Part shown: positions 3,066 to 38,645 of the stretch, piece by piece | How the letters are laid out: each line of letters opens with the position of its first letter | How positions within the stretch are numbered: the first letter of the stretch is position 1 | NCBI RefSeq assembly: GCF_055900595.2 | Contig: NZ_CM148325.1 | DNA: 64,000 nucleotides | Strand: one strand, 5' to 3' | Notes under the pieces: generated by a model | Told to the model about the DNA's origin: nothing | The model's input: the letters and a program-made list of their open reading frames with translations, nothing else | Databases searched by the model: none | Made by a program: the position numbers and the translations under genes

Positions 3066-3117
3066 AAAGCAAAACGCCGCCAGCCGATCCGCAAGGATCT
3101 ACTGAGCGGCGTTTTTT
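3066..3117 (-). terminator. stem-loop terminator after frr
   Basis: AAAACGCCGC ... GCGGCGTTTT long hairpin with U tracts on both strands. Confidence 0.6.
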
Positions 3118-34342: not shown

Positions 34343-35592
<1,250 letters not shown>

Positions 35593-35769
35593 TAGAGTAA
35601 GTAACTGGTTAATTTACATTCTGGTCGCGTGCGCAAATACGCTTTTCCTCACACAGTTGTCAAGTGTTACGTTTAGATAATTGCTATCCGGAAAAGCTTC
35701 TGCTATTTATAGCGGCCTCATTTTTCCCCCGAACATGGGGATCGATAGTGCGTGTTAAGGAGAAGCAAC

Positions 35770-36225
35770 ATGCAAGAAGGGCAAAACCGTAAAACATCGT
35801 CCCTGAGTATTCTCGCCATCGCTGGGGTGGAGCCATATCAGGAGAAGCCGGGCGAAGAGTATATGAACGAAGCCCAGCTGGCGCACTTCCGTCGTATTCT
35901 GGAAGCATGGCGTAATCAACTCAGGGATGAAGTCGATCGCACCGTTACACATATGCAGGATGAAGCAGCCAACTTCCCGGACCCGGTAGACCGTGCAGCC
36001 CAGGAAGAAGAGTTCAGCCTCGAACTGCGTAACCGCGATCGCGAGCGTAAGCTGATCAAAAAGATCGAGAAAACGCTGAAAAAAGTGGAAGACGAAGATT
36101 TCGGCTACTGCGAATCTTGCGGTGTTGAAATTGGTATTCGTCGTCTGGAAGCGCGCCCGACAGCCGATCTGTGCATCGACTGCAAAACGCTGGCTGAAAT
36201 TCGCGAAAAACAGATGGCTGGCTAA
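35770..36225 (+). CDS. dksA: RNA polymerase-binding transcription factor DksA
   Basis: 151 aa from [20 protein letters not shown]4 zinc finger [25 protein letters not shown]. Confidence 0.92.
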
Positions 36226-36252
36226 TTACAGCCGTTCCATCACGTTTACCAC

Positions 36253-36281
36253 AGGCGGGAAATGCTCCCGCCTTATTTTTT
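36253..36281 (+). terminator. dksA intrinsic terminator abutting the gluQ start
   Basis: AGGCGGGA-AATGC-TCCCGCCT followed by TATTTTTT, ending 10 nt before the gluQ ATG. Confidence 0.75.
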
Positions 36282-36291
36282 GTTCAACGAG

Positions 36292-37188
36292 ATGACAGAC
36301 ACACACTATATTGGTCGCTTCGCCCCCTCTCCTTCTGGCGAGCTTCATTTTGGCTCTCTGATTGCCGCGCTTGGAAGCTTTCTACAGGCTCGCGCCCGGC
36401 AAGGTCGCTGGCTTGTTCGCATTGAAGATATCGATCCGCCTCGTGAAGTTCCCGGTGCCGCAGAGACCATCCTGCGCCAGCTGGAACATTACGGTCTACA
36501 CTGGGACGGCGATGTTCTCTGGCAATCGCAACGTCACGACGCCTATCGCGAAGCACTCGCATGGTTACATGAGCAAGGGTTAAGTTATTACTGCACCTGC
36601 ACGCGCGCACGTATTCAAAGCATTGGCGGTATTTACGACGGTCATTGCCGGGAGTTGCATCATGGGCCAGAAAACGCTGCTGTACGTATTCGCCAGCAGC
36701 ATCCGGTCACCCAGTTTACTGACCAGCTGCGCGGCATTATTCATGCCGACCAAAAACTGGCGCGGGAAGATTTTATTATTCATCGTCGTGATGGTTTATT
36801 TGCCTATAACCTGGCGGTGGTGGTGGATGATCACTTCCAGGGCGTGAGCGAAATTGTCCGCGGGGCAGATTTGATCGAACCGACAGTGCGGCAAATCTCG
36901 CTGTACCAGCTTTTTGGCTGGCAGGTGCCAGATTACATTCATTTGCCACTGGCACTTAATCCACAAGGCGCTAAACTTTCCAAGCAGAATCATGCGCCTG
37001 CGTTGCCAAAAGGCGATCCTCGGCCGGTGTTAATCGCGGCACTTCAATTTCTGGGCCAGCAGGCAGAAACACACTGGCAGGATTTCAGCGTTGAGCAAAT
37101 TCTCCAGTCAGCCGTCACAAACTGGACGCTGACTACCATTCCTGAGTCGGCAATTGTAAATTCAACATTCTCAAATGCGTCATGCTGA
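36292..37188 (+). CDS. gluQ: glutamyl-Q tRNA(Asp) synthetase
   Basis: 298 aa from [23 protein letters not shown] (class I aaRS HIGH-like motif). Confidence 0.88.
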
Positions 37189-37247
37189 GCTATGATTAGC
37201 CGCTATTTTTTTGTCCTGAATGATGTTTGACACTACCGAGGTGTACT

Positions 37248-38645
37248 ATTTTTACCCGAGTCGCTAATTTTTGCCGCAAGGTGCTAAGCCGCGAGGAAAG
37301 CGAGGCTGAACAGGCAGTCGCCCGTCCACAGGTGACGGTGATCCCGCGTGAGCAGCATGCTATTTCCCGCAAAGATATCAGTGAAAATGCCCTGAAGGTA
37401 ATGTACAGGCTCAATAAAGCGGGATACGAAGCCTGGTTGGTTGGCGGCGGCGTGCGCGACCTGTTACTTGGCAAAAAGCCGAAAGATTTTGACGTAACCA
37501 CTAACGCCACGCCTGAGCAGGTGCGCAAACTGTTCCGTAACTGCCGCCTGGTGGGTCGCCGTTTCCGTCTGGCTCATGTGATGTTTGGCCCGGAGATTAT
37601 CGAAGTTGCGACCTTCCGGGGACATCACGAAGGTAACGTCAGCGACCGCACGACCTCCCAACGCGGGCAAAACGGCATGTTGCTGCGCGACAACATTTTC
37701 GGTTCCATCGAAGAAGACGCCCAGCGCCGCGATTTCACCATCAATAGCCTGTATTACAGCGTGGCGGATTTTACGGTCCGCGATTACGTTGGTGGCATGA
37801 AGGATCTGAAAGACGGCGTTATCCGTCTGATTGGTAACCCGGAAACGCGCTACCGTGAAGATCCGGTACGTATGCTGCGCGCGGTTCGTTTTGCCGCCAA
37901 ATTGGGCATGCGCATCAGCCCGGAAACCGCAGAACCGATCCCACGCCTGGCAACCCTGCTAAACGATATTCCTCCGGCACGCCTGTTTGAAGAATCGCTT
38001 AAACTGCTACAAGCGGGCTACGGTTACGAAACCTATAAACTGTTGTGTGAATACCATCTGTTCCAGCCGCTGTTCCCGACCATTACCCGCTACTTTACGG
38101 AAAATGGTGACAGTCCAATGGAGCGGATCATTGAGCAGGTGCTGAAGAATACTGACACGCGTATTCATAACGATATGCGCGTCAACCCGGCGTTCCTGTT
38201 TGCCGCCATGTTCTGGTATCCCCTGCTGGAAACAGCACAGAAAATCGCGCAAGAGAGCGGCCTGACTTATCACGACGCTTTCGCGCTGGCAATGAACGAT
38301 GTGTTAGACGAAGCCTGCCGTTCACTGGCGATCCCGAAACGGCTAACCACTTTAACGCGTGATATCTGGCAGTTACAGTTGCGCATGTCCCGCCGTCAGG
38401 GTAAACGCGCATGGAAATTACTCGAACATCCGAAGTTCCGTGCCGCTTATGACCTGCTGGCACTGCGTGCTGAAGTAGAACGCAACGCCGAGCTACAACG
38501 TCTGGCGAAATGGTGGGGTGAGTTCCAGGTTTCCGCGCCGCCGGACCAAAAAGGGATGCTTAACGAACTGGATGAAGAACCGTCACCGCGTCGTCGTACT
38601 CGTCGCCCGCGCAGACGTGCGCCGCGCCGTGAGGGCACCGCATGA
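37248..38645 (+). CDS. pcnB: poly(A) polymerase I
   Basis: 465-aa protein [15 protein letters not shown]...; in-frame ORF begins at TTG 37227 but the conserved start position corresponds to ATT at 37248 (known non-canonical AUU initiation in E. coli). Confidence 0.8.

Follow-up and report, generated by a model that had tools for sequence, protein, structure and literature searches.

The dksA and gluQ genes of the analysed stretch of DNA (64,000 nt, hereafter the window) are separated by a partial intrinsic terminator. The best explanation of the evidence, to which we assign a probability of about 0.9, is that this element ends most dksA mRNA, that the minority of transcripts reading through it is the sole source of gluQ mRNA, and that the missing Shine-Dalgarno (SD) sequence further limits gluQ translation. 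Expression of gluQ by read-through is already known, having been published in 2012 for a virtually identical sequence (PMC3542578), and the window restates it. The combination of a conserved hairpin, a missing SD and a variable U tract is a small addition to that work, which could guide studies of how terminator leakiness is tuned.

Genes, hairpin and start codon

On the + strand, dksA is followed by gluQ and then by pcnB (RefSeq start 37248, codon ATT), the RefSeq coordinates being taken from an E. coli genome that is identical across window positions 35600-37300. The gluQ product is a GluQRS equivalog, with scores above the cut-offs of both NF004312 (616 bits, cut-off 453) and TIGR03838 (380 bits, cut-off 277). 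The 66 nt that separate dksA from gluQ are made up of a 27-nt spacer, the hairpin, the U tract and a 10-nt spacer (Table 1).

Table 1. Features of the dksA-gluQ junction in window coordinates
Feature	Position	Strand	Details
dksA CDS, 151 aa	35770-36225	+	RefSeq of identical genome; NCBIfam NF008045, 346 bits; stop TAA 36223-36225
Spacer from dksA stop to hairpin, 27 nt	36226-36252	+	sequence
Terminator hairpin	36253-36273	+	arms AGGCGGGA 36253-36260 and UCCCGCCU 36266-36273; loop AAUGC 36261-36265
In-frame ATG in hairpin loop	36262-36264	+	obsolete start of the former 308-aa gluQ product; not used
U tract UAUUUUUUGUU, interrupted by one A	36274-36284	+	T run ends at 36281 (sequence)
Spacer GUUCAACGAG from T run of U tract to gluQ ATG, 10 nt, without SD	36282-36291	+	
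gluQ (gluQRS/yadB) CDS, 298 aa, tRNA glutamyl-Q(34) synthetase	36292-37188	+	RefSeq; NCBIfam NF004312, 616 bits; ATG 36292-36294

With 8 bp, six of them G-C, a 5-nt loop and a folding energy of -14.5 kcal/mol, the hairpin has the stem of an intrinsic terminator, taken here as a G+C-rich stem-loop of about 5-14 bp with a short loop, and the tail 3' of it (UAUUUUUUGU) has the composition of a U tract, with 8 T in 10 positions and a T score of 4.0. When the element is folded with 185 nt of context, its pairs form with probabilities of 0.87-1.0. Moreover, the 75-nt intergenic stretch folds at -19.6 kcal/mol, compared with -11.6 +/- 2.3 kcal/mol for dinucleotide shuffles (z = -3.4), and none of 200 shuffles equalled it. 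A lenient terminator pattern scan of the 4-kb neighbourhood placed the dksA-gluQ hairpin at the top of its sites; since the scan returned 6 sites where 5.1 were expected from shuffles, a count no higher than chance, a bare pattern match is no proof. Both strands of the 64-kb window were also scanned with a d'Aubenton-Carafa-type discriminant d, calculated from the hairpin energy per length and a weighted T count. A d of at least 15 was reached by only nine sites, four of them on the + strand, and the dksA-gluQ terminator, with d = 21.8, stands near the bottom of these nine, a rank expected of a good but non-maximal terminator because an A interrupts its U tract. Elsewhere in the window, a long hairpin at 3075-3111 (-23 to -25 kcal/mol) with T tracts on either side, for which d is 29.0 on the + strand and 22.7 on the - strand, is likely a bidirectional terminator.

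An earlier note on this DNA had described a strong intrinsic terminator with an 8-bp GC-rich stem and a U tract, which sequence, fold energy and d all confirm, and the 10 nt that it gave between the end of the U tract and the gluQ start are exact (T run ending at 36281, ATG at 36292). From the ribosome footprint we infer that a ribosome at the dksA stop codon should leave the 5' arm uncovered, given the 27-nt spacer.

Two further kinds of structure were considered and discarded. For a riboswitch or attenuator, alternative pairing of the 5' arm yields -2 to -5.6 kcal/mol, as against -14.5 kcal/mol for the terminator, and the sequence 5' of the arm consists of the dksA ORF and the 27-nt spacer; as the arm has no strong alternative partner and pairs at 0.87-1.0 within the hairpin, there is no sign of either device. 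An Rfam search of the locus returned no family, its only hit being a chance snoRNA match (E = 0.35). In addition, pairing of CAUCACGUU (36238-36246) to AACGAGAUG (36286-36294) is predicted in the read-through RNA of the window strain, giving an outer helix in which the gluQ AUG would be sequestered. Part of this helix is broken by the A found at 36288 in K-12 and E. albertii, and the unpaired probability of the AUG has a median of 0.47 over 73 loci, of which only 29% lie below 0.3; the helix was dropped because it is conserved neither within Escherichia nor across other genera.

The gluQ start codon has been established by experiment on near-identical sequence. The N-terminus of S. flexneri GluQ-RS was sequenced as TDTQYIGRFAP (PMC3542578), so that translation begins at the second AUG and the protein has 298 residues. 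The loop ATG at 36262 is missing from other genera, and 36292 is the current RefSeq start. The 308-aa annotation is wrong, and because of it genome-wide data show the dksA terminator as if it were a 3' end within an ORF; the label 'internal to gluQ' given to this 3' end in PMC7815308 arose because the old annotation was used.

No obvious SD precedes gluQ-rs in S. flexneri (PMC3542578), and the anti-SD duplex energy at gluQ in the window is +1.5 kcal/mol, the value for dksA, with its strong AAGGAG, being -9.2 kcal/mol. The same holds more widely: gluQ lacks an SD in 73 of 75 loci (median anti-SD duplex +0.5 kcal/mol over the 20 nt 5' of the start), with a strong SD at dksA in 73 of 75 (median -7.4 kcal/mol). 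This suggests that low translation is a conserved part of the gluQ design.

Transcript ends and read-through

The position and Rho-independence of the dksA 3' end come from published experiments on near-identical K-12 sequence. In the Term-seq data of Adams et al. (2021), the dominant K-12 3' end lies at 160097(-) (PMC7815308). The 61-nt string reported for it matches window 36227-36287 at every base, and as the 3' end is base 51 of the string, it corresponds to window 36277, within the U tract and 4 nt beyond the stem. The tables carry this end in three entries, as would fit its presence in each of the three growth conditions, and give 3,097,035 reads for LB at OD 0.4 and 254,767 for a second condition; its intrinsic terminator score is 7.47, where a value >3 suggests intrinsic termination, and its Rho score of 1.16 in the bicyclomycin comparison is flagged 'No', or not significant (PMC7815308). 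DirectRNA-seq coverage in 800-nt windows drops from 250 before 160097(-) to 62 after it (PMC7815308), a ratio that mixes termination, differential mRNA stability and window placement, so that the efficiency of read-through can only be given roughly, at about 10-25% from two indirect published measures. Just 3' of the terminator, at 36288, the window strain has C instead of the A of K-12.

Two other K-12 3' ends of the same data set fall near dksA. The first, 160387 (read count 29,202, intrinsic terminator score about 1.0; PMC7815308), corresponds by coordinate arithmetic to about window 35987 inside dksA and is probably a processing product. The second, 160652, is an 'orphan' 3' end whose 61-nt sequence differs from the window at one base and places it at window 35722 (PMC7815308). 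The sfsA-dksA gap holds a weak hairpin, CTGCTATTTATAGCGG then CCTCATTTTT, at 35700-35725, about 50 nt 5' of the dksA ATG, and the dksA P1 start should fall near 35715 by the numbering of PMC3542578. This element may be the sfsA terminator, a stop for dksA promoters further 5', or something else.

The locus has been presented by Conway et al. (2014) as an example of complex operon architecture, its primary unit being ligT-sfsA-dksA-yadB-pcnB-folK (PMC4161252). RNA-seq resolved a dksA-specific K-12 unit that arises from an internal promoter and an internal terminator, as well as a pcnB-folK unit with its own promoter, and the text describes no yadB-specific promoter (PMC4161252). In the window, a sigma-70-like site, TTCTCA-17-TATGAT, lies at 37168-37196 in the final gluQ codons and is the sole one in 34500-38500; its predicted start at about 37203 matches promoter S-159171, which Conway et al. 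assign to pcnB-folK (PMC4161252). No convincing terminator was found 3' of gluQ in window 37168-37250.

Co-transcription, the lack of a separate gluQ promoter and the function of the terminator have likewise been demonstrated on near-identical sequence, in S. flexneri 2457T (Caballero et al. 2012, BMC Microbiol 12:226; PMC3542578). RT-PCR showed dksA and gluQ-rs to be co-transcribed, and a lacZ fusion running from dksA +58 to the gluQ-rs start, without the dksA promoters, gave baseline activity (PMC3542578), which bears out the earlier claim that gluQ is expressed by terminator read-through. Fusions with and without the hairpin, which had been suggested as a check, are part of the same study: a fusion ending at the dksA stop had 10-fold the activity of one that included the intergenic region, and stem-disrupting mutations raised lacZ activity more than 2-fold, all of these reporters being multicopy plasmids studied under few growth conditions (PMC3542578). 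The stem was given an mfold energy of -14.7 kcal/mol there, with the first AUG in the loop and the second 27 nt 3' of it (PMC3542578, Figure 4). Spanning transcripts and the lack of a separate gluQ promoter, as judged from PMC3542578, PMC4161252 and our motif scan, identify the element as a partial internal terminator of the operon.

That scan, a relaxed one over the + strand at 35950-36300, found no sigma-70-like motif (at least 7/12 matches with key -10 positions) and no sigma-E-like motif. The earlier note had argued that there is no room for a gluQ promoter after the hairpin. The reporter data do exclude a promoter under the conditions tested; the spacing alone is no proof, since a promoter could overlap the hairpin or sit within dksA. 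Its further conclusion, that gluQ is tied to dksA transcription, stands as far as the shared transcripts go and has to be widened, because every transcript crossing dksA counts, including those from the ligT/sfsA promoters and not only those from the dksA promoters.

In the best explanation, the hairpin and U tract (36253-36284) are a Rho-independent terminator and generate the main 3' end of dksA mRNA, an abundant message. Termination is incomplete, so that a minority of the RNA polymerases coming from dksA pass it, and the resulting read-through transcripts, which extend into pcnB-folK with its additional promoter, are the only gluQ mRNA. A second reduction would occur at the level of translation because AUG 36292 has no SD, and the U-rich tract may serve as a ribosome-loading aid. 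A leaky terminator combined with a weak start site would hold GluQRS at a low, fixed proportion relative to DksA, the two genes sharing their promoters. An enzyme that modifies the wobble base of tRNA-Asp would in this way be tied to the promoters of DksA, a cofactor of the stringent response, a link that has been published, and possible polar effects on gluQ and pcnB deserve attention when dksA carries insertions or deletions.

Variation among related genomes and rival readings

The junction was compared across 80 loci from Enterobacterales, Vibrionaceae and Shewanellaceae, gathered with DksA as probe. In 74 of them gluQ lies directly 3' of dksA, and a stable hairpin between the two genes is present at nearly every locus; the intergenic fold is more stable than that of shuffles by a median z of -3.4, with values below -2 in 86% of 73 loci. 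Within E. coli, 5423 of 5426 complete genomes match the 75-nt intergenic stretch at 95% identity or more. Among 26 Enterobacteriaceae sequences (25 loci and the window) the GGCGGG/CCCGCC core never changes, the loop and the flanks are variable, and there is covariation in the flanking pairs: in four of these both partners change, and pairing holds in 88.7% of cells, compared with 50-55% when the partner is slid. Because the six core pairs do not vary, they are uninformative on this point, and covariation within Enterobacteriaceae is supportive but modest. A stronger argument comes from unrelated stems that occupy the same position in other families, for example ACGGCGCC in Photorhabdus, CGGTGCCAG in Yersinia, GCAGTGAGGC in Erwinia, CGCGGGGCC in Shewanella and GGGAGC in Vibrio/Photobacterium.

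The U tract is less uniform than the stem. Terminator-like elements (d > 0) are present in Enterobacteriaceae (19/28), Vibrionaceae (6/6) and Shewanellaceae (4/4), and in only 2 of 39 loci of Erwiniaceae, Yersiniaceae, Morganellaceae, Pectobacteriaceae and Hafniaceae, where a strong hairpin is followed by a degenerate U tract. Of the two exceptions, one is Morganella psychrotolerans L060 (d = 54.5), where gluQ is no longer present at that position. Where gluQ depends on the element, selection could preserve its leakiness; alternatively, the hairpin could have a further role such as 3'-end protection. The comparison with gluQ-less loci, made to see whether dksA has a stronger terminator when gluQ is missing, is anecdotal, as it covers only five usable ones, of which L060 has a very strong element and the others are weak or from reduced symbiont genomes. 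The pattern of degenerate U tracts is not found in the cited literature.

A separate observation concerns the surrounding allele. Over window 35600-37300 (1.7 kb), identity of at least 99% is reached in only 14 of 5424 E. coli genomes, with 2613 at 90-95%, yet the window strain and K-12 share one DksA protein accession. Set against this shared accession and the near-universal spacer, the divergence of the 1.7 kb makes the gluQ/pcnB part of the window strain seem a divergent allele, by sequence identity.

Read-through might be modulated rather than constant, by growth phase, DksA/ppGpp, NusA, a protein or an sRNA, in which case the terminator would be a switch for gluQ and pcnB-folK. We consider this unlikely, and it refines the best explanation without excluding it. 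It draws on a 20-fold, unexplained rise of the intergenic RT-PCR product in stationary phase, against 1.3-fold for the dksA and gluQ-rs amplicons, and on the authors' decision to keep a riboswitch-like or protein-mediated mechanism open (PMC3542578), although end-point RT-PCR is semi-quantitative and the rise is at odds with the stable gluQ-rs amplicon. Elongation factors could affect termination efficiency, given the imperfect U tract; against a switch, no alternative antiterminator fold and no Rfam match were found at the locus, the authors' own riboswitch search was negative (PMC3542578), and the threefold listing of the Term-seq 3' end is consistent with termination in all three conditions (PMC7815308). 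DksA and ppGpp increase intrinsic termination at other terminators (PMC3333854), and by analogy they could raise termination at dksA's own terminator and lower read-through to GluQRS and pcnB-folK, as a tunable valve, a distinctly improbable variant. If it were true, selection on the leak could explain both the invariant GGCGGG/CCCGCC stem of Enterobacteriaceae and the loss of the U tract in other families of Enterobacterales.

Constant read-through as the sole source of gluQ mRNA also has to be weighed against a promoter of gluQ's own, placed inside 3' dksA or overlapping the terminator and active under other conditions, which would leave gluQ not strictly tied to dksA. Such a promoter is very unlikely. 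A sigma-24 site, a computational RegulonDB prediction, is mentioned in PMC3542578, the gluQ-rs mutant has an osmotic-stress phenotype (PMC3542578), and the Term-seq filtering rule may imply a transcription start at most 200 nt 5' of the 3' end (PMC7815308). These points are opposed by the baseline activity of the fusion from dksA +58 (PMC3542578), by the empty motif scan of 35950-36300, by the text of the K-12 operon map, which describes no yadB promoter (PMC4161252), and by the mere 10 nt between the T run and the ATG; moreover, transcripts starting inside dksA would still face the dksA-gluQ terminator. Still further from probable is a hairpin that mainly serves RNA stability or processing, as an exonuclease barrier for dksA mRNA whose 3' ends are made by processing of a longer transcript. 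The hairpin is kept with a degenerate U tract, d being below 0, in 37 of the 39 loci of the five families named above, so that something besides canonical termination may maintain it there, and a 3' end at 36277, 4 nt beyond the stem, fits exonucleolytic trimming. On the other side, the E. coli/Shigella U tract is good (8/10 T), the K-12 end combines its intrinsic terminator score of 7.47 with no Rho dependence, and a transcriptional lacZ fusion went up when the stem was mutated (PMC3542578). Stabilisation of the 3' end is in any case a normal by-product of an intrinsic terminator and no alternative to it.

Comparison with known systems

In the E. coli rpsU-dnaG-rpoD operon, dnaG has a poor ribosome-binding site and is expressed by read-through from the promoters of the abundant gene upstream; extra internal promoters and RNase E processing for rpoD are further features of that operon. 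Its terminator T1, an internal intrinsic terminator directly 5' of the low-abundance gene dnaG, has been cited as an analogue (PMC3542578), with genes and sequence unrelated to those of dksA-gluQ. Like gluQ, E. coli recX is expressed via read-through of the terminator of the preceding gene, at about 10% for recA (cited in PMC3542578); the sequences are again unrelated, and the logic differs, RecX being an inhibitor of RecA. The preQ1 riboswitches of queuosine genes resemble the present element in placing an intrinsic terminator just 5' of a queuosine-pathway coding region, and dksA-gluQ differs from riboswitch and attenuator platforms in having no aptamer, alternative antiterminator helix, leader peptide or Rfam match. 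The closest counterpart is dksA-gluQ-rs of S. flexneri 2457T, in which the genes, the hairpin and the read-through conclusion are all as in the window: the junction differs by one substitution, C for A at 36288 in the spacer between U tract and ATG, and GluQRS by amino-acid differences such as TDTHY in place of TDTQY, the mechanism being alike.
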